In this document: positions 26,755 through 64,000 of the stretch, piece after piece
How the letters are laid out: every line of letters begins with the position of its first letter
Numbering within the stretch: the first letter of the stretch is position 1
Assembly (NCBI GenBank): GCA_024403655.1
Contig: JAKSRK010000002.1
Coordinates: 2,084 to 66,083, forward strand
Source of the DNA: Saccharofermentans sp.
Lineage (GTDB): Bacteria; Bacillota; Clostridia; Saccharofermentanales; Saccharofermentanaceae
Direction: 5' to 3'
DNA length: 64,000 bases
Translations under genes and position numbers: made by a program
Notes under the pieces: model-generated
What the model saw: the letters and a program-made list of their open reading frames with translations, nothing else
What the model was told of the DNA's origin: nothing
The model's database searches: none

Positions 26755-26830
26755 GATCCATTAGCTCAGTCGGTAGAGCACTTGACTTTTAATCAAGGGG
26801 CCTGGGGTTCGAACCCCCAATGGGTCACCA
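26755..26830 (+). tRNA. tRNA-Lys(TTT), ICE integration target
   Basis: Cloverleaf with loop CTTTTAA; ends ACCA. Confidence 0.95.
26783..26830 (+). repeat. attL: 48-bp direct repeat (3' half of tRNA-Lys)
   Basis: TGACTTTTAATCAAGGGGCCTGGGGTTCGAACCCCCAATGGGTCACCA, identical at 62775-62822. Confidence 0.95.
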
Positions 26831-28037: not shown

Positions 28038-28143
28038 GTTAGTTATTACCTTTGCGTTTTTGTGAAAATAACTTACTGAGATAAATGATTCAAGGATGGA
28101 AAATTATTCTTGCATCCTTGACAATCACTGAAAAATAAGCATC

Positions 28144-28741: not shown

Positions 28742-29338
28742 TTACGTTTCGTTTTCCTCGATTTCTTCCTTGTATCTATAGTAAGTCGCAAGACCTATTC
28801 CCATAGCAGCACTAGCTTCTTTAACAGACATTTTACCTTCTTCAACTTGTTTAAGAAATCGCTTAAATGTTTCTGGTTTCACTTTACGCGAACGCCCAAA
28901 TTTAACCCCTCTAGCCAGAGCAGATTCTACACCCTGTCTTGTTCGCTGCAAGATTTTCTGTCTTTCTAATTCAGCACAATATCCAAGAATCGTTAATGTA
29001 ACATCCGCCAAGAATTTACCTGACAAGTCCTGTTTATCCCTGGTATCAAGCAAAGGCATATCTAAAACGATAATATCTATCTTCTTTTCTTTAGTTAGAA
29101 TCTGCCACTGTTCCTGTATCTCGATATAGTCACGTCCAAGACGATCTATAGAATACAGATAAAGACAATCGCCTGGCTTAATTTTCCTCATCAGCTTTTG
29201 CCATTCGGTACGGCAAAAGTCTTTGCCTGACTGGTGTTCCTCATATATTCGCATCTCAATACCGAGAGCTTCCATAGCATCCCTCTGTCGATCCGTATTT
29301 TGATGATTGGTGCTAACTCTTATATAGCCATAATTCAT
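28742..29338 (-). CDS. Small serine recombinase (resolvase/invertase) with C-terminal HTH
   Basis: YGYIRVST, SGKD..R, SIDRLGR, ER..I..R..G..A..GVKFGR, GIGLATYYRY. Confidence 0.92.
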   Translation of the reverse strand: MNYGYIRVSTNHQNTDRQRDAMEALGIEMRIYEEHQSGKDFCRTEWQKLMRKIKPGDCLYLYSIDRLGRDYIEIQEQWQILTKEKKIDIIVLDMPLLDTRDKQDLSGKFLADVTLTILGYCAELERQKILQRTRQGVESALARGVKFGRSRKVKPETFKRFLKQVEEGKMSVKEASAAMGIGLATYYRYKEEIEENET

Positions 29339-29389
29339 AAAAATCATCTCCGTTTCTTAACATTATCTTTGATTAATATAGTACATTCA

Positions 29390-39123: not shown

Positions 39124-40470
39124 TCAATACCTCTCTTTATTTTGAACTGAATATTTATCTTTTGACATCTGTGGTGATCTGCGATTGTGATTAAGTATGT
39201 AATCGCAATAGGAAATCTCTTTCTCAAGCTTCTTCTTTTCAGCTTTTTTAAAATCAGGATTCGTACTCTTGTCAGATTTAATTTCTACAAGTTCACGATG
39301 AAGCTTTATTTTTATTGCTGAAACATCATTAATAGACTTGATATCATTCTTTAGAATGAAACAGGATACTCCAGATATTAACTGAAGTTCCTTATACGCT
39401 GCTTTACCATCTGCAGATAGAGTATTTCTGTTAGAATTCTGCTCAAGTTCCTTTTTATACTTGAAGTATTTATAGAAGAAATAACTATGTACTTTTCTGC
39501 CATCGACATAATAACCTCGGTGCCGACGGTATAATTTAACACTATTTATTTTCAGTCTATATATCTTCTTGGGAGTTTTTAGCTGATATCTGACATATTC
39601 TCGGTTAAGCACTTGCTTATCGTATTCGGGATCAGAAAGCCTACGATATATATCTTCTATATCATATCCATCATAACGATTTAGGTTACAAAATCGGTAA
39701 AATCTACGCTTACCATTCTTATCATATGCATCAGGCGGAGATAATGCAGGGAATTTATATCTTGATCCAACCTTAAGTTGATAGCCTTTATCTTGAAGGA
39801 TGATGTATATATCATCCAGTGATATCGAATCAACAATTGCTGCATCAACATCTCTACATATACGTTCTCGCGTATACGGCTGACCAGCTTCTCTGTTTTT
39901 CAGCCAATTCTTAGTTCCAACTTGACTAGGTTCCTCGATAATAGACAGACCATGTTCAAGACAAATCTCGTCAGATGTTCTACGCATCAAATCATAATCT
40001 TCAGGAGAATTATAGAATTTATACCCATCAGCAATAGATACGGAATTAATCACAAAATGATTATGTACGTGGCCTGTATTAACATGTGTTGCTACAACGA
40101 CCTGAAAGCGATCTCCCCAAATCCGCTGAGCAAGTTCGACACCTATAGCATGAGCTTCTGAAGGTTCAACTTCATCTGCAGCAAATGATTGATATCCATG
40201 ATAACACTGTCTACCTTTGTCTTTATGGTAAATATCTTTAGTCTCCTGGAAGTACCACGCAGCTTCTTCAGGAGAATCAACAGCAACACCACCAATACCA
40301 GAGATGAGGAATGCCTTTTCATCACGTTCAGAAATAGAGAACTCACCCTGTCCATTCATATCAAGATGAAAATCTTTCCAATTACTAGAGTCCGTTTTCT
40401 CAGGATTCATAACATAAGATATACATTTATAAACAGTATTCTTATACGACCATAGGGATGTAACAGCCAT
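39124..40470 (-). CDS. MOBP-type relaxase
   Basis: YVMNPEKT (catalytic Tyr region), YHGYQSF, ATHVNTGHVHNHFVINSV (3H motif). Confidence 0.92.
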   Translation of the reverse strand: MAVTSLWSYKNTVYKCISYVMNPEKTDSSNWKDFHLDMNGQGEFSISERDEKAFLISGIGGVAVDSPEEAAWYFQETKDIYHKDKGRQCYHGYQSFAADEVEPSEAHAIGVELAQRIWGDRFQVVVATHVNTGHVHNHFVINSVSIADGYKFYNSPEDYDLMRRTSDEICLEHGLSIIEEPSQVGTKNWLKNREAGQPYTRERICRDVDAAIVDSISLDDIYIILQDKGYQLKVGSRYKFPALSPPDAYDKNGKRRFYRFCNLNRYDGYDIEDIYRRLSDPEYDKQVLNREYVRYQLKTPKKIYRLKINSVKLYRRHRGYYVDGRKVHSYFFYKYFKYKKELEQNSNRNTLSADGKAAYKELQLISGVSCFILKNDIKSINDVSAIKIKLHRELVEIKSDKSTNPDFKKAEKKKLEKEISYCDYILNHNRRSPQMSKDKYSVQNKERY

Positions 40471-40482
40471 ATTTCCTCCAAC

Positions 40483-40520
40483 AAAAAAGCACCCGATTTC
40501 TCAGGTGCTTCAGTAGTGTT
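40483..40520 (-). repeat. 38-bp terminator-containing segment duplicated at 55658-55695
   Basis: AAAAAAGCACCCGATTTCTCAGGTGCTTCAGTAGTGTT, exact in both places. Confidence 0.9.
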
Positions 40521-40523
40521 TTT

Positions 40524-40550
40524 AACTTTGCGACAAGTCGGTAAAATGTT
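40524..40550. repeat. 27-bp ICE palindrome, copy 3 (degenerate)
   Basis: AACTTTGCGACAAGTCGGTAAAATGTT; same position relative to the duplicated terminator as copy 9. Confidence 0.65.
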
Positions 40551-40551
40551 C

Positions 40552-51370: not shown

Positions 51371-52876
51371 TTAAACCCAAACAACTCCATTGATAGTAGC
51401 AGAACCTGCTGCCATCCAAGAATTGCTACTATAATCGTATTCCATACGCTGAAAACCAACAGAATACAAATAGTCCTGATAAGTGTCAGTCCAAATTGCT
51501 CTATGACCAGGAGAATTTAACAATCTGGTGTAAACATCCGTAGCATTAGTTCCACTTGCAAGATTCTCATCCATAGGGTAAGGACTACCACTTTGACCAT
51601 TAGGTCTTATATGTCCCCAAACAACCGTTGCTTCAGCAGCTCTTAGTCTAAAAGTATTGATTGCTTCCTGAGATACACCACTTGTAAGATACGGCTGTAA
51701 GCCTAATGTGTTTACTCGATAATTGTTAATCATGTTATCAAGCTCAGACATATCAACATAGTATCCATAAATTCTCTGTGTCTGTCCGTTACCCATATCA
51801 ATATCAATGATTTCATAGCCGTTAGCTCTTGCAGAAGCATCAATATCAAATGCTGCTGACGGAGTAGAGGGAGTTACAGGACTAGGAGCCGGAGCAGGAG
51901 CAGGTGCAGTTGTTTCATAGAAACAATTTGATGTACTACCAGGAGCAGCGGATCCAACAGGAAGTATTAGTACCTCAATACCTTCGAGTCTGTATCCATA
52001 TCCGGCACTACCACAAGGAGCACCGTCCTTTGCCCAACCTGTCCAACCAAAGTTCTGTACGTGTGTTCTATACCACACATTGTAGCTACCTGAATTACTA
52101 CCATTAAGAGAAATTTCAATAGCTTCAAGTCTCAAACTCTGTCCTTCTGTACCGGACATTGCTCCATTGGATACCCAACCTTGCCAACCAATGTTCTGTA
52201 CGTGTGTCTTGTACTGGATACCTACACCGGAGATATTAGATGAAATCTTTATACCTTCAAGTCTAAGGCTCTGCCCTGTTGTACCAGACATAACACCATC
52301 GGTTACATTTGACTGCCAACCAATGTTCTGAACGTGAGTATTATATGTAACAAATGTAGGAGAAGCACCTGCCGGTACTACTCTAATCTCAATGCCTTCA
52401 AGTCTTAAGCTCTGACCTTCTGTACCAGCCATTGCTCCATCCTTAACCCAAGACATCCAACCGATATTCTGTACGTGTACTCTATAGTAAATATCGTAGT
52501 TAGAGGCATTACTACCTGTAAGCTCAATCTTGACACCCTCAAGTCTTAAAGATCTACCTTCTGTACCGGACATTGCTCCGTTGGATACCCAACCTTGCCA
52601 ACCATCATTCTGAACATGAGTCTTGTATCTAACACCTAAGTTCTGACCTGAGACATTAACCTTCAATCCCTCAAGTCTTAAACTCTGTCCTTCTGTACCG
52701 GACATTGCTCCATTAGATACACTTGTCTGCCAACCAACATTCTGTACGTGTGTACTGTAAGATACACTTACGTCGGTATTAGAAGCAGCCATGACGTTCT
52801 GGGGCAACACAAAAAGCATAAGAAGAATTGAAAGCACAACTGTTATGCTTGTAATCCTTATATTTTTATTCTTCAT
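51371..52876 (-). CDS. Secreted protein with six ChW (clostridial hydrophobic W) repeats and a C-terminal CAP/SCP domain
   Basis: Repeated Y.THVQN.GWQ..V..GAMSGTEGQSLRLEG; HIRPNG, ENLA, NSPGHRA. Confidence 0.85.
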   Translation of the reverse strand: MKNKNIRITSITVVLSILLMLFVLPQNVMAASNTDVSVSYSTHVQNVGWQTSVSNGAMSGTEGQSLRLEGLKVNVSGQNLGVRYKTHVQNDGWQGWVSNGAMSGTEGRSLRLEGVKIELTGSNASNYDIYYRVHVQNIGWMSWVKDGAMAGTEGQSLRLEGIEIRVVPAGASPTFVTYNTHVQNIGWQSNVTDGVMSGTTGQSLRLEGIKISSNISGVGIQYKTHVQNIGWQGWVSNGAMSGTEGQSLRLEAIEISLNGSNSGSYNVWYRTHVQNFGWTGWAKDGAPCGSAGYGYRLEGIEVLILPVGSAAPGSTSNCFYETTAPAPAPAPSPVTPSTPSAAFDIDASARANGYEIIDIDMGNGQTQRIYGYYVDMSELDNMINNYRVNTLGLQPYLTSGVSQEAINTFRLRAAEATVVWGHIRPNGQSGSPYPMDENLASGTNATDVYTRLLNSPGHRAIWTDTYQDYLYSVGFQRMEYDYSSNSWMAAGSATINGVVWV

Positions 52877-53108
52877 CTTGTATCTCCTTGAAATCAATAC
52901 CACTATCAAAGTTCTTCATTATGAAATCACAATACTTAATCAAGCGTTCTTGAAACTTATAATCTTTGTATTGCTGATATGAAATTAATATTGCACCATC
53001 ATACGGACTCTTTCTGTTAGTTATTCTAACAGCTTCTCGATTAGATGCTGCAAGCTCATAATATTGTCTCAGCTGTTCCCTAAATTCTGTTAAGTTCACT
53101 TCTTTCAT
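52866..53108 (-). CDS. Phd/YefM-family antitoxin
   Basis: MKEVNLTEFREQL...V.ITNR....AILISY pattern; own SD and promoter. Confidence 0.75.
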   Translation of the reverse strand: MKEVNLTEFREQLRQYYELAASNREAVRITNRKSPYDGAILISYQQYKDYKFQERLIKYCDFIMKNFDSGIDFKEIQDEE

Positions 53109-54010: not shown

Positions 54011-54023
54011 AGTTACTCCTTTC

Positions 54024-54050
54024 AACTTCTCGCCAAGTTGGCGCGAAGTT
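54024..54050. repeat. 27-bp ICE palindrome, copy 8
   Basis: AACTTCTCGCCAAGTTGGCGCGAAGTT. Confidence 0.93.
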
Positions 54051-54051
54051 A

Positions 54052-55098: not shown

Positions 55099-55645
55099 AT
55101 TCAACAAGCTCTCCTTCCCCTAATTCCATCTCGATATCTTCTGTAAAGATATCTTCAGCTGCAATACCATTAAGCTTTGCAAATTCATTAAGATCTTCAC
55201 TGTGAATAACCATTTTTAAAACCTCCTGTGAATCTGATAAATCTATCGGCTCAACTTCGTGCCTACCGTAATAGAATTCATATTTCAATTTATTATGCGA
55301 GGGATATAAGAAGTCACCTACCGCACCAAGCTTAACCTTATACCCTAGCCTGTTCCATTCTTCTTCTAACCGTAGATTAACTGTATCGATATCAGTTCTA
55401 AACTCCGTTCCATAACTAGTCATAAGTGGAAGAACTTTACCCAAGGAATTTCTGTTCTGAATTCGTGTGAAACCGATTGGAGACAAAGAAGCATTGTATC
55501 CAATCAAACAAAATATCGGCTCTCTTGTTTCTGGATCCCTATAAAAACCCCACGATACATATGAAAATGTATGATTTCTATTCTGAATCACCCCGGTATC
55601 TCTCCAAAACTTCAGATTACCTATATGCACAATCTCATATTTCAT
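55082..55645 (-). CDS. Hypothetical protein
   Basis: ORF with SD GGAGA; no recognisable motif. Confidence 0.6.
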   Translation of the reverse strand: MKYEIVHIGNLKFWRDTGVIQNRNHTFSYVSWGFYRDPETREPIFCLIGYNASLSPIGFTRIQNRNSLGKVLPLMTSYGTEFRTDIDTVNLRLEEEWNRLGYKVKLGAVGDFLYPSHNKLKYEFYYGRHEVEPIDLSDSQEVLKMVIHSEDLNEFAKLNGIAAEDIFTEDIEMELGEGELVEYADEE

Positions 55646-55657
55646 TTTATCTCCCAT

Positions 55658-55695
55658 AAAAAAGCACCCGATTTCTCAGGTGCTTCAGTAGTGTT
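55658..55695 (-). repeat. 38-bp terminator-containing segment duplicated at 40483-40520
   Basis: AAGCACC/GGTGCTT hairpin plus T6 on the minus strand. Confidence 0.9.
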
Positions 55696-55698
55696 CTT

Positions 55699-55725
55699 AA
55701 CTTCGCGCCAACTTGGCACGAAGTT
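55699..55725. repeat. 27-bp ICE palindrome, copy 9
   Basis: AACTTCGCGCCAACTTGGCACGAAGTT. Confidence 0.95.
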
Positions 55726-55727
55726 CC

Positions 55728-57010: not shown

Positions 57011-57047
57011 AGTTCGTGCCAACTTCGCGCCAAGTTGGCACGAAGTT
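57010..57047. repeat. 27-bp ICE palindrome, copy 11 (extended by an extra 11-bp period)
   Basis: TAGTT-CGTGCC-AACTT-CGCGCC-AAGTT-GGCACG-AAGTT. Confidence 0.92.
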
Positions 57048-57408
57048 ATCTTTCTAATCCTCTATACTTATGTTTTACAGATTCTTTTTCAGTTTCACCT
57101 TTTAAACGTTGGTTTTGTTCAACTTCTTCCTGAACCTTCAAACGAGTTAATCTTTCATTCAGATTGTGAAGATTTTCAAAACTTGAATCAGTTACCACCT
57201 GCGAAAGCTTATCCAAATATAGTCTCATATCAGAACCAAATTCAGTTTTCTGTTTCATTGCAAACAGAAGCTTATATAAATTCTGCAATTTAGAATCATA
57301 CTCTAAAGTTAATTTTGTAGCTTCTGAAATACTCAAGTCATCTTTTGCTATTTCATTTACATTTTCTTGAAGAACAGTTTTTAAAAGCTCATAAAATTCT
57401 TCGTCCAT
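57046..57408 (-). CDS. Hypothetical helical protein
   Basis: SD AAAGGAG; ends KYRGLER. Confidence 0.65.
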   Translation of the reverse strand: MDEEFYELLKTVLQENVNEIAKDDLSISEATKLTLEYDSKLQNLYKLLFAMKQKTEFGSDMRLYLDKLSQVVTDSSFENLHNLNERLTRLKVQEEVEQNQRLKGETEKESVKHKYRGLER

Positions 57409-59745: not shown

Positions 59746-60780
59746 TTATACAGAATTGATTCCTACTTCGCTAAATAAATCAAAGATTGCATCAGAGTAT
59801 TCATTTTCTGCATCGTTCATTATTAACGTTTCTTCGGGTTTAATGTAACTGTCAGCTTTTATTCCTGCTTCAGCTCCAGTCTTAAGCACGTTACGTTTTG
59901 TAGAAGACTGCTCTTTTCTGTAAGCACATTTATTAGCTTCATGCTGCTTCTGCATATAAACTGTAGCTTCATCAGTAGAAGTAATTCCTGACTCAAACCA
60001 CTCTGTAAGAGTCGCGTCAACGTGCTTAAGTTGAAGCTTATCTTTTCTAAACAAGTTGTCCTGGATAGCAAGTCTAATGAGATCCAATGAGCAGTTCATA
60101 CTTTTCCATTTATTGACGAAATATTTGCCGGATAACGAAATATCCTTTTCGTCAAAAACTGAAGAAATGATATCAGCGGTGGCAGCGGTCTCAGAAAAAC
60201 AGCTTTCTTCTGAAATATCACTTACTTTAAGTTTAGTACTACTACCACTACTATTAGTCTTATTCTTTTTAGTATTATTTATATCAGTCTTATTTGCTCC
60301 CAAATTTTGGGACTCTTGATTCACAAATAATGGGATTCCAGAATCCCAAATTTTGGGATTCCGGACTCCCAAATTTTGGGATTCCGGAAGAACCGTTGAT
60401 TTTATTGAGTTTTCAGAAGATTCTGTTTCTATTTCATCAGTAAAATCCTTAACGTAGATCTTATCCGGACGATTTAATCCTTGTTTAATCTTCTCAACAA
60501 GACCTATAGAAACAAGTTCTTGCATCAATTTTGTTACTGTATTTTTTGAACATCCTAAATCTTCTATTATTTCATTGTTGGTGTAGTAAATATAAACATG
60601 ATTGTTATCATCTATCCAACCGTTTCTAATCGATAGACTAGCACGATCCATAAGAAGAGAATATAGAAGTTTAGCGTCTGTACTAATCTTCTTAAACTTT
60701 GGATCTTTCACCAATTGTTTAGGAATAACAAAATAAGAATAGCTGGTAGATTTTTCTAAACTTAAATAATTAAACTTCAT
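59746..60780 (-). CDS. repA: RepA_N-family replication initiator with C-terminal DnaD/DnaB_2-like domain
   Basis: FVIPKQL..AKLLYSLLMDRASLS..NGWIDD..YIYY...ELVSIGLVEKIKQGLNRPDKIYV. Confidence 0.9.
   Translation of the reverse strand: MKFNYLSLEKSTSYSYFVIPKQLVKDPKFKKISTDAKLLYSLLMDRASLSIRNGWIDDNNHVYIYYTNNEIIEDLGCSKNTVTKLMQELVSIGLVEKIKQGLNRPDKIYVKDFTDEIETESSENSIKSTVLPESQNLGVRNPKIWDSGIPLFVNQESQNLGANKTDINNTKKNKTNSSGSSTKLKVSDISEESCFSETAATADIISSVFDEKDISLSGKYFVNKWKSMNCSLDLIRLAIQDNLFRKDKLQLKHVDATLTEWFESGITSTDEATVYMQKQHEANKCAYRKEQSSTKRNVLKTGAEAGIKADSYIKPEETLIMNDAENEYSDAIFDLFSEVGINSV
60298..60381. repeat. Intragenic repA iterons (candidate oriV)
   Basis: Three copies of palindromic TCCCAAATTTTGGGA (60298, 60344, 60367) encoding SQNLG repeats. 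RepA_N origins are known to lie within repA. Confidence 0.8.
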
Positions 60781-60810
60781 ATGACTTCCCTTCTTATATT
60801 ACGACAAGCA

Positions 60811-60837
60811 AACTTCGCGCCAACTTGGCGCAAAGTT
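60811..60837. repeat. 27-bp ICE palindrome, copy 15 (parB/repA junction)
   Basis: AACTTCGCGCCAACTTGGCGCAAAGTT. Confidence 0.93.
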
Positions 60838-60848
60838 GCTAATTACTA

Positions 60849-61751
60849 TCAATCACCTGCATACGCCTTTAATGCTGCTATGATGTATTCCTCTACGTCT
60901 TTATTTGTTTGAAGTCTTGAGGGGAGATAAGAAACTATTCTTTCCCTCTTGATTTTGTATTGTTCCTTCTGATTTCCCTTCAGTTGATTCATTAACGCAT
61001 CAACTGACTCGATGGTTAATTCACCTGCTTCAAACTGTCTCCTTAGTTCCTGAGCCTGATGAATAGACGGATAAGACTGTTTTTCATCAATGGATTTAAA
61101 CACTATCTCCTGAGCTTCAGACGATAGATAAGAAAGTTCAACGGCTGCGTTAAAACTGATAGTTCCTTCATCTACTAATGTCTGAAAATCTTTGTTAAGC
61201 TCATTTAATCGAAGATATCTGTTTATATTTCTTGCAGAATCTCCAAATATTCTTGTCAGATTCTCATTGGTCATACCATCTGCTTTTTTGCCCTGGTGAA
61301 CCGTAGCATTATGTACTCTTTGGTATGTTCTCGCTTTCTCCATATAAGAAATATCAGGACGAGCGATATTTGTTTCAGCCATCTGAATATCTGCTTCATC
61401 GTCAGTTAAATTTCTAACGATAACCTTCATCTTATTAAAACCATTTATTTCAAGAGCATGTCTAGTCTGATGCCCTTTAATGATTTCATATCTGCCATCT
61501 TCATAAGGAGAAGGTCTTACAATGCCAGGAGTAATCTGACCATGCAAATGAACTGAATGAATTAACTCTTGCATTTCTGGATGATCATCCGGCCTAATAT
61601 CGAACGTATGATGCTTATAATCATCAAGAAGATCAATATCCACCGTGATTATCTCTTCTGCTGAGCCGTTACGCATATCTTCACTTGAGAAGAAATCATC
61701 CATAGAAGTCTTTGCTAAAAGCTTATTTTTAATACCCAGTGTATTAGACAT
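60849..61751 (-). CDS. parB: ParB/RepB/Spo0J-family protein
   Basis: LIHSV..HGQITPGIVR..GRYEII.GH, ADIQMAETNIAR, RNINRYLRL HTH region. Confidence 0.88.
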   Translation of the reverse strand: MSNTLGIKNKLLAKTSMDDFFSSEDMRNGSAEEIITVDIDLLDDYKHHTFDIRPDDHPEMQELIHSVHLHGQITPGIVRPSPYEDGRYEIIKGHQTRHALEINGFNKMKVIVRNLTDDEADIQMAETNIARPDISYMEKARTYQRVHNATVHQGKKADGMTNENLTRIFGDSARNINRYLRLNELNKDFQTLVDEGTISFNAAVELSYLSSEAQEIVFKSIDEKQSYPSIHQAQELRRQFEAGELTIESVDALMNQLKGNQKEQYKIKRERIVSYLPSRLQTNKDVEEYIIAALKAYAGD

Positions 61752-62535
61752 TATCAATTACCTCCTTTGTGAATTTCTTATAGGCAATTGAACCCTTACA
61801 CTTAGGAGCATACTTATATACGCTTATCCCCTTAGGCGGAGCCTTTGCTACATGAGCACTCTTAGGAATCTGTGTATCAAATATTCTGATGTTATCTCCA
61901 AATACTTCGCTAACTGATTCTATGATTTCTCTATTGAGCATGAATTTTGATTCGACTATAGTAAAGAGAATTCCAGCAATACTGAGCTTGGGATTGATCC
62001 TTCTCTTAATCCTCTTGATCGTCTCGATAAGCTGCACAAGACCAAGTGAAGCAAAATATTCAGGTTGAATAGGGATGATTACATCATCTGCAGCTACCAG
62101 AATATTCTGCATAAGCATAGTCAAAGAGGGCAGTCCATCTATGATTACATAGTCATATTCTTCAATGCCTATAAAGTCGTATAAAAATCTCTTCAAAGTT
62201 GTTTCCCTTGACATAGCAGTTACTAAAGCAGCTTCAGTAGCAGCCAGTGTGATATTAGCTGGAATCAGATCAACACCTTCCTCATGAGAAAGAATGAACT
62301 GTGCAGATACATCAAGATTTTCTGTATTATCTGATGACATAGCCAAATTCAATCCTTCTGCAAGAGAATACTCAAAGTCATAGTATCCTAAAGCCTGAGT
62401 CGTATTTCCTTGCGGATCAGCATCGACGATAAGGACTTTATATCCTTCTTTAACGAGTCCAATTCCAAGATTGACTGTAGTGGTAGTTTTAGCAACTCCA
62501 CCCTTCTGATTACAAATTGCGATTACTTTTTTCAT
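61744..62535 (-). CDS. parA: ParA/Soj-family ATPase
   Basis: NQKGGVAKTTT, DADPQGN, DYVIID.LPSL, IPIQPE. Confidence 0.93.
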   Translation of the reverse strand: MKKVIAICNQKGGVAKTTTTVNLGIGLVKEGYKVLIVDADPQGNTTQALGYYDFEYSLAEGLNLAMSSDNTENLDVSAQFILSHEEGVDLIPANITLAATEAALVTAMSRETTLKRFLYDFIGIEEYDYVIIDGLPSLTMLMQNILVAADDVIIPIQPEYFASLGLVQLIETIKRIKRRINPKLSIAGILFTIVESKFMLNREIIESVSEVFGDNIRIFDTQIPKSAHVAKAPPKGISVYKYAPKCKGSIAYKKFTKEVIDNV

Positions 62536-62674
62536 TTGCGTTTTTTCCTTTCCTATGCACCTTTAGGTACATAAAGCACCGCTTCGACCAATTCCACTTG
62601 CTTAGCAAAAACGCAAATGAAAAAGAACTAAGCAAGTCTTCGCCGAAACGGCTCTTTATGTATCTACTTGCTAG
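62528..62674 (-). promoter_or_regulatory. Structured parA leader with an anti-start-codon segment
   Basis: 18-bp inverted repeat 62528-62545/62607-62624 covers the ATG; 10-bp inverted repeat 62596-62605/62628-62637; 9-bp inverted repeat 62568-62576/62654-62662. Confidence 0.65.
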
Positions 62675-62774
62675 TAAGGAGATAAAATAATTGCAATAAA
62701 AAAAGACATCTTTTAAAGATGTCTTTAATAACTAAATGATCGAGAAATGTCATGCTGAAAATTAAATCAGCATG

Positions 62775-62822
62775 TGACTTTTAATCAAGGGGCCTGGGGT
62801 TCGAACCCCCAATGGGTCACCA
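62775..62822 (+). repeat. attR: 48-bp direct repeat (3' half of tRNA-Lys)
   Basis: Identical to 26783-26830. Confidence 0.95.
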
Positions 62823-62831
62823 GAATATTCA

Positions 62832-62859
62832 AGAGGAGATCAAATGATCTCCTCTTTTT
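62832..62859 (+). terminator. Original tRNA-operon terminator displaced by the ICE (probably bidirectional)
   Basis: AGAGGAGATC / GATCTCCTCT plus T tract, 9 bp after attR. Confidence 0.75.
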
Positions 62860-62870
62860 GTATTCTTATA

Positions 62871-63860
62871 TTATGTGGTCGAAGTAGCTGCAGCGGTTGA
62901 AGATGCAATGCAGGCACATATACATGCCGCCATTACTACTTCCTGAGTAACTATAGCTGTTACTGATGCTGTTACAACATTTGTAATTGATTCAGCCTGA
63001 TTACCGATTGAATTACTTACTACTCCACAGGCAAACATGGTTCTTAAGGACTTACCTACTCCTGAGAGGCCACCAAAGATCTTACAGGATGACAGATACT
63101 TTTCTACTTCCGCTATTTCTGCTGCAAGTTCAGAAGCATCCTTTTCCAATGCTGCCTTTACAAGCGGAGCAAGAATTGCGACAGAGCTATATCCACTAAG
63201 CTTAAGCTTTCTCTTCTTAAGTTCATCCACTATAGCAAGGACCTTACTACACTTCAGGTCACAAGCTTCGTCATATATGGCAAGAAGCGAACACAATGTA
63301 AGAAGATCATTATGGTCGAAGAAATTTGGCTTTAGTATCTTATAGCAGTTCTGAGCTTCAGCTGTGAGTTCTTCAGGGCTCTTACCCGACAAAGCCATTA
63401 TTGCATATGTAGCAGAATCCTCTGAAGAAGAATAGAAGAAATGCTCTTTCTTCATGAGCTTATAGATTTTGCTCATCTCATCTACTACAAGCTCAGCATC
63501 CTTACCTGAATCTTCTATGATTATCGCTGCAAGAGCGGAATATTCATTTCCCCAAAACTTATTCTTAACGATCTTATATATCGCATTTATATTATCTATC
63601 TTCTTCTCGGGAGAGTTGCTCTTATATACAGACGCAGTTGTAATTATGCGGGTAGCACTTGCTCCGAGTGCGGAGAATAATCCGGTCTTACTGCTTACAA
63701 GCTTCTTACATGCCTTAGCTCTGTCTATATCATAATTCACATCTGACATTGCTGATGCAAATGCTGCTGATTCCAGGCTTCCGCATAAGGTAAATACTCT
63801 TGATGCGTTCTTTGCATTCTCTGCAAGTATCTGTGCGTTTCTTAAAGTAATATCATTCAT
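62871..63860 (-). CDS. DUF4003-like hypothetical protein (chromosomal)
   Basis: 329 aa helical protein with an Ala/Cys/Ser-rich hydrophobic C-terminus; host-like codon style. Confidence 0.6.
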   Translation of the reverse strand: MNDITLRNAQILAENAKNASRVFTLCGSLESAAFASAMSDVNYDIDRAKACKKLVSSKTGLFSALGASATRIITTASVYKSNSPEKKIDNINAIYKIVKNKFWGNEYSALAAIIIEDSGKDAELVVDEMSKIYKLMKKEHFFYSSSEDSATYAIMALSGKSPEELTAEAQNCYKILKPNFFDHNDLLTLCSLLAIYDEACDLKCSKVLAIVDELKKRKLKLSGYSSVAILAPLVKAALEKDASELAAEIAEVEKYLSSCKIFGGLSGVGKSLRTMFACGVVSNSIGNQAESITNVVTASVTAIVTQEVVMAACICACIASSTAAATSTT

Positions 63861-63954
63861 TTCTAATCTATTCCTTTCGCTGTTATGAATTCATCTTAAC
63901 AGTCATGGTTAAAGGAAATGCTAATCCAAATAAATGATTTCTTTAAGAAAACAT

Positions 63955-63984
63955 AAAAAAGGAAGCTCTCGCGAGAGCTTCCTT
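63955..63984 (-). terminator. Terminator of a gene beyond the window
   Basis: AAGGAAGCTCTC / GAGAGCTTCCTT plus T tract on the minus strand. Confidence 0.7.
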
Positions 63985-64000
63985 AATAGTTCTGTTATTC

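Follow-up and report, generated by a model that had tools for sequence, protein, structure and literature searches.

In the window, by which we mean the whole 64,000-nt stretch of DNA analysed here, the approximately 150 nt upstream of parA probably constitute a cis-regulatory RNA leader on the parA(-parB) mRNA that, as far as sequence can tell, gates translation initiation. The leader is a conserved structured RNA leader of a small clade of rumen Oscillospiraceae ICEs that had previously been uncatalogued. It is most likely a translational gate for partition genes.

The leader belongs to an ICE inserted in a tRNA-Lys gene, with the following main features:

26777-62822: ICE of ~36 kb in tRNA-Lys, with all genes on the minus strand, bounded by a direct repeat
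26755-26830: intact tRNA-Lys gene, adjoined by the integrase; parA lies at the opposite end
62769-62822, plus strand: attR, the displaced 3' part of tRNA-Lys, a repeat of 26777-26830 that marks the ICE end
61744-62535, minus strand: parA, encoding a short Walker-type ParA of 263 aa, with its ATG at 62535-62533
60849-61751, minus strand: parB, encoding ParB_N and HTH_ParB, with its own GGAGG and an ATG that overlaps the end of parA by 8 nt

The direct repeat of the tRNA-Lys 3' part (26777-26830 and 62769-62822) is 54 nt long and 96% identical. The ICE encodes a tyrosine integrase, a serine recombinase, a CHAP-domain protein, VirB4-like, PrgI and VirD4-like proteins, a MobA/VirD2 relaxase, an ArdC-like protein, Fic and a PcfJ-like protein, and its far end encodes RepA_N, ParB and ParA. 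The parA leader starts ~100 nt inward of attR and, lying between attR and parA, is the first feature within the far boundary of the ICE. Because parA and parB overlap by 8 nt, a gate on parA would probably extend to parB. The first-pass annotation had proposed a gate on an entire parA-parB-repA operon. The pairing at the parA start is indeed conserved, but repA_N lies 1.7 kb downstream of the leader, has its own Shine-Dalgarno sequence (SD) and is preceded by a 27-bp palindrome, so any effect of the leader on repA would be indirect.

The leader itself comprises the following parts:

62702-62726, minus strand: intrinsic-terminator-like hairpin (11-bp stem, then a T run), lying ~35 nt upstream of the leader hairpin
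62666-62674, minus strand: CTAGCAAGT, alternative partner of the apical-stem 5' arm, from the sequence and a constrained fold Y
62639-62666, minus strand: 5' arm (A) of the long hairpin X, helix H1, from the inverted repeat, folds and alignment
62628-62637, minus strand: 5' arm (B) of the apical 10-bp stem, H2, from the inverted repeat
62607-62624, minus strand: anti-TIR loop segment, 18 nt perfectly complementary to the parA start (duplex -19.7 kcal/mol)
62596-62605, minus strand: 3' arm (B') of the apical stem, H2, from the inverted repeat
62564-62591, minus strand: 3' arm (A') of hairpin X, whose 3' half (62566-62575) alternatively pairs with segment C
62552-62561, minus strand: segment C (GGTGCATAGG), alternative partner of A' in helix H3 (10 bp including 3 G.U)
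62547-62553, minus strand: parA Shine-Dalgarno-like GGAAAGG, of which GAAAG is kept in all leaders
62528-62545, minus strand: translation initiation region (TIR) arm, -10 to +8 around the ATG, the target of the loop segment

The 18-nt complement to the parA start described in the first-pass annotation is present (62607-62624 against 62528-62545, 100% complementary), as is the perfect 10-bp stem that displays it in a 22-nt loop (62596-62605 and 62628-62637). This stem caps the outer inverted repeat (62564-62591 and 62639-62666), which spans 28 nt and is 79% complementary, while segment C sits immediately 5' of the parA SD and overlaps it by two bases. Two further pairings proposed at that stage exist in the window sequence but did not extend to its relatives when their folds were judged by eye: that of CTAGCAAGT with the apical-stem 5' arm (6 + 3 bp, interrupted by one bulge) was not evident in homologues, and an outer 9-bp helix was not seen conserved in the other leaders.

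Both the loop/start complementarity and the hairpin exceed chance. The sense RNA of the leader folds at -56 kcal/mol, compared with -35.6 +/- 4.1 kcal/mol for 200 shuffles (z = -5.0), and 300 shuffled versions of the upstream region contained perfect complements to the start region of at most 12 nt, the longest in each averaging 6.7 nt. Elsewhere in the window, the 18-mer, the 10-mer and the stem motif have no meaningful additional copies, and long-range complementarity of the leader to the other ICE end or to the chromosomal flank was not above shuffles. Directly upstream of the integrase ATG, positions 28044-28061 of the minus strand share AAAAACGCAAA, an 11-nt match, with the parA start region. 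By its sequence the loop segment may in principle also pair upstream of int, and the match is perhaps due to chance in AT-rich DNA.

The exact ParA protein of the window recurs on several metagenome contigs, where the leader is nearly the same, these copies differing by single-base substitutions (one at 62750) and by changes in T-run length. Two of them, L043 and L045, carry T4 instead of T5 in the loop T run at 62607-62611, which leaves a complement of 17 rather than 18 nt. The next relatives have ParA proteins 51-57% identical to that of the window and form a small clade set apart by score. In total we compared seven distinct leaders: that of the window (WIN), L048, L049 and L050 from metagenome contigs (as are L051 to L053), and L026, L027 and L028 from three genomes of one rumen Oscillospiraceae genus. 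L026 is identical to L065/L066 from Ruminococcaceae bacterium YRB3002 (GCA_900099715.1), and L027 and L028 are near-identical to L062 and L061, respectively.

Outside this clade, the leader was not found at the ParA homologues P0018, P0124 and P0125, and the leaders of ~60 further ParA homologues showed start-region complementarity of only 4-8 nt. A ParA search of genome and metagenome contigs returned only distant ParAs (37-44% identity) that lack the leader, and a DNA search of 61 relatives and of plasmids matched the parA coding start only and nothing in the leader. The leader motif pattern was absent beyond the genus itself from 301 genomes of the order and 401 of the class; three matches in the class search look spurious, and the control with a reversed pattern returned 4. 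Scanning viral contigs with a 14-mer yielded chance matches only. Comparison with Rfam 15 gave only chance-level matches, far below gathering, for window positions 61000-64000 at E <= 1, and only tRNAs for six homologous loci at the gathering threshold. We found no description of the parA leader in the literature.

Across the seven leaders, a segment complementary to the parA initiation region lies at -94 to -69 from the ATG, always in a 16-22-nt hairpin loop. The complement measures 18 nt in WIN, 17 in L050, 15 in L048, 14 in L027 and 13 in L049, and, counting G.U pairs, 10-11 nt in L028 and 10 nt in L026, with loop/TIR duplex energies of -10 to -25 kcal/mol. Its target always falls within -16 to +15, covering the SD in some leaders and the AUG plus first codons in others. 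The paired sequences themselves differ among leaders, with 4-12 positions in common. Since the pairing has been kept in seven diverged leaders despite these different sequences, we conclude from the comparison that the pairing of the loop with the parA initiation region is under selection.

The hairpin that displays this loop also covaries. In a MAFFT alignment, 96% of cells in the 22 aligned pairs of H1 are paired, and 11 of the 22 pairs show compensatory changes. For the whole structure 91.7% of cells are paired, with compensatory changes in 15 of 27 pairs. None of 500 shuffles reached the observed level of covariation, and slid controls were 35-42% paired; as the seven leaders are few and related the shuffle statistics are optimistic, but the contrast with the slid controls is independent of relatedness. 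The check for covariation in homologues suggested in the first-pass annotation therefore came out in favor of the structure, through both H1 and the complement retained in all seven leaders. The cells of H1 that are not Watson-Crick comprise 17 G.U in six columns and no A.C, and in six of the seven leaders the sense strand gives a more stable fold than the antisense strand, also with DNA parameters. Wobble of this kind, with G.U present and A.C absent, points to a sense RNA rather than to a double-stranded DNA site or a template strand.

Helix H3, which pairs the 3' arm with segment C, measures 9-11 bp in six leaders by a scan and was identified by inspection in L028. In all, 89.6% of its cells are paired and three pairs show compensatory changes, a level reached by 16 of 500 shuffles; strong sequence conservation in this region makes the support weaker than that for H1. 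L027 and L048 each show joint change of the 5' arm, the 3' arm and segment C, and in the window a G.U pair takes up the change.

The leader can accordingly adopt two folds. Fold X consists of H1 and H2 and leaves both the loop and the initiation region free, whereas fold Y consists of the loop/TIR helix enclosing H3. The leader thus holds mutually exclusive pairings, one of which sequesters the initiation region. The full 18-bp loop/TIR helix and a closed 10-bp apical stem should be sterically incompatible, while a partial pseudoknot of about one turn could coexist with the stem. By energies computed for nested folds, X is ahead of Y by 1-10 kcal/mol in five of the six full leaders. Fold Y is better by 15-20 kcal/mol in L048, where the 5' arm is at the same time the 3' half of a tRNA terminator, which accounts for the preference. 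When the 5' end is shortened into the 5' arm, every leader shifts to Y. The idea that the region is a switchable RNA structure able to sequester the parA start is therefore borne out by the retained loop/TIR pairing, the alternative partner of the 3' arm and the G.U bias.

Because the pairing always falls on the ribosome-binding region and the structure is biased toward the sense RNA, we favor a cis-acting translational gate on parA; that the acting molecule is the mRNA and the effect is on translation we infer, as we do the default state and the trigger. In this model, fold X would show a 10-18-nt complement of the parA SD/AUG in the 16-22-nt apical loop of a long imperfect hairpin. Segment C, adjacent to the SD, would then take the 3' arm from the 5' arm to form H3, and the freed loop segment would zip onto the initiation region and block the 30S subunit, giving fold Y. 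With the displayed loop capturing the initiation region during transcription, the message would be largely silent by default. Relief would come when the anti-TIR segment is caged, bound or cut away; candidate routes are cutting of the long stem by RNase III and a protein or RNA keeping the leader in fold X. Such a gate would silence transcripts that enter the first operon of the element from the neighboring tRNA or the chromosome, and would keep ParA/ParB at a low, controllable level.

A largely repressed default is the state we favor, for several reasons: the anti-TIR segment is on display in a loop, where capture would be fast; its complementarity to the start region is long and perfect; segment C acts as a built-in opener of the long stem; and the leader sits where outside transcription enters, with a co-oriented tRNA directly upstream in three homologues. 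These intact tRNA genes lie 155-305 nt upstream of parA (L048, 3773-3846; L027, 1179-1252; L050, 2124-2197), an arrangement that fits a need to neutralise incoming transcription. The leader of L026 lies behind two small co-oriented genes, ~680 bp from the element boundary, and here too transcription would be expected to arrive from upstream. On the other side, the nested energies favor X, with a free initiation region, in five of six leaders, so the default could be ON rather than OFF.

Consensus scans detected no sigma-70-like promoter upstream of the hairpin in any of six leaders, and none between the loop segment and the SD. As for the trigger, we looked for and did not find an antisense promoter, a leader peptide or a known ligand-binding motif, and no small ORF is conserved in the seven leaders. 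Antisense control from the plus strand, raised in the first-pass annotation, finds no backing in these scans: a consistent sigma-70-like promoter was absent from all six leaders, although a weak or atypical one could escape a consensus scan.

A more elaborate possibility, which we regard as fairly unlikely, is that the leader works as an RNA sensor of excision state or copy number. In one version the fold would depend on the preceding RNA, which would be chromosomal or tRNA read-through in the integrated element and int read-through across attP in the circular form; in the other, the displayed loop would act in trans on other copies of the message. If true, this would tie ParA/ParB synthesis and plasmid-like maintenance of the ICE to the state or dosage of the element with no protein regulator involved.

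The conserved region could instead act as DNA, with the hairpin as a by-product. An ~11-bp motif, RGRTGYATAAKG, occurs in two direct copies and one inverted copy (5' arm, 3' arm and segment C), and these copies, or the 18-bp inverted repeat, could be operators for ParB or another repressor, or arm-type sites for Int/Xis, that is, the integrase or excisionase acting near att. The lower stem is strongly conserved in sequence, with seven invariant pairs, in WIN, L027, L048 and L050 the att core is 100-250 bp from the element end, inverted repeats bound by dimers covary too, and autoregulation of par operons usually operates at the DNA level. Against this, double-stranded DNA has no reason for the one-strand wobble seen in H1, and the stem extends and covaries well past the RGRTGYATAAKG motif, which is not enriched elsewhere in the ICE. 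The location of the leader is fixed relative to the parA ATG and not to att, as L026 illustrates, and the loop complement always targets the SD/AUG, as a DNA site need not do. A separate dispersed operator candidate, the 27-bp palindrome, is moreover present in 15 copies, none of them in the leader. We therefore consider a DNA-binding site unlikely as the basis of the conservation.

Less probable again is that the hairpin functions as a single-stranded DNA element of the transferred strand, either as a Frpo-like promoter for early expression of parA in the recipient or as a single-strand origin (sso) from which synthesis of the complementary strand is primed; the first-pass annotation had listed a single-strand promoter or origin as its alternative. 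The long imperfect hairpin does fold when either strand is treated as DNA (z -5.4 and -4.0), an ordinary promoter was not detected upstream of parA, and the co-oriented ICE genes with an anti-restriction ardC downstream resemble plasmid leading regions (PMC11541004), where Frpo-type ssDNA promoters occur upstream of co-oriented genes of the establishment type (PMC11541004, PMC9849209). Like these, the parA stem forms a long imperfect hairpin that precedes such genes in a conjugative element. Neither arm, however, has a -35/-10 pair on either strand consistently across six leaders, the loop sequences contain no ssoA-type CS-6 (TAGCGT/TAGCGA), and the better-pairing strand of the stem is the sense strand, the non-template strand, which cannot serve as template for parA. 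Neither role, moreover, accounts for a hairpin loop with a covarying complement of the ribosome-binding region, so this alternative is disfavored.

Least credible, to the point of being very improbable, is an invertible DNA switch in which the 18-bp inverted repeats flanking 61 bp are flipped by the serine recombinase (28742-29347) to uncouple parA from its SD: the ICE does have perfect inverted repeats beside the start codon and a small resolvase/invertase-like gene, but the window and four independent metagenome assemblies that span the whole leader show a single orientation, the repeats of L026 and L028 are imperfect as DNA, with G.T positions, the repeat in L048, L027 and L049 includes the SD so that inversion would leave the initiation region unchanged, and 61 bp is very short for synapsis.

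The translational gate that we prefer has relatives among known systems. In IS10 and IS50, fold-back pairing inhibits transposase translation, and in IS10 the complement is missing from transcripts that start at the element's own promoter. The parA leader resembles these in that the first gene of a mobile element is shielded by an upstream complement of its ribosome-binding site at the boundary where outside transcription enters. It departs from IS10 in that a consensus scan found no promoter downstream of the loop segment, and in that the complement occupies the loop of a long hairpin that covaries and has a further, alternative helix. In the pSK41 and pT181 leaders, alternative pairings decide whether the initiator ribosome-binding site or a terminator forms, under antisense-RNA control. 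The parA leader shares the alternative pairings, and the pSK41 initiator is a RepA_N protein like that of the ICE; the parA leader, unlike theirs, precedes parA and not rep, has no detected countertranscript promoter, and forms no terminator in either fold.

In the IncI-alpha (ColIb-P9)/IncB repZ-repA systems, a pseudoknot activates translation and needs a leader peptide and an antisense RNA. Here too a hairpin loop pairs with a distal sequence near the ribosome-binding site, but the parA leader has no conserved leader peptide, and its loop pairs across the SD/AUG itself and should therefore inhibit rather than activate. Finally, RNase III unmasks occluded ribosome-binding sites in the E. coli adhE and phage lambda N leaders, and the parA leader likewise places an occluded initiation region downstream of a long, imperfectly paired stem of 35-42 bp. 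By analogy, RNase III cleavage would remove the anti-TIR segment and leave H3 as a 5' hairpin on the message.

Control of the partition and replication modules of ICEs is generally ascribed to DNA-binding repressors. An RNA gate on ParA/ParB translation, if true, would add a post-transcriptional layer to the control of silent integration versus plasmid-like maintenance. An anti-initiation loop carried on a long covarying hairpin with a built-in strand-exchange partner is an unusual architecture, and the parA leader offers a compact model for RNA switches without an obvious ligand.

Several other repeats were identified in the ICE. The RepA_N gene contains four tandem 23-bp repeats (TCCCAAATTTTGGGAYTCCRGAM-like) at 60298-60389; in other RepA_N replicons the origin iterons are located within the rep gene, and by analogy these repeats look like iterons of an origin inside the gene. 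The 27-bp palindrome (consensus AACTTCGCGCCAAGTTGGCGCGAAGTT) is distributed across the ICE from 31011 to 60838, mostly directly upstream of gene starts (for example at 54017-54051, 57014-57048 and 60804-60838), and may represent a dispersed operator or centromere for a ParB/KorB-like protein, or intercistronic RNA hairpins. An 84-nt intergenic block containing a gene start, a terminator-like hairpin and a copy of the palindrome is duplicated with 83% identity at 40468-40551 and 55643-55726, before two different genes. Lastly, the 512-aa gene at 51371-52909 contains 6-7 tandem repeats of ~132-141 nt at 51971-52773, and its product is presumably a repeat-domain surface protein.
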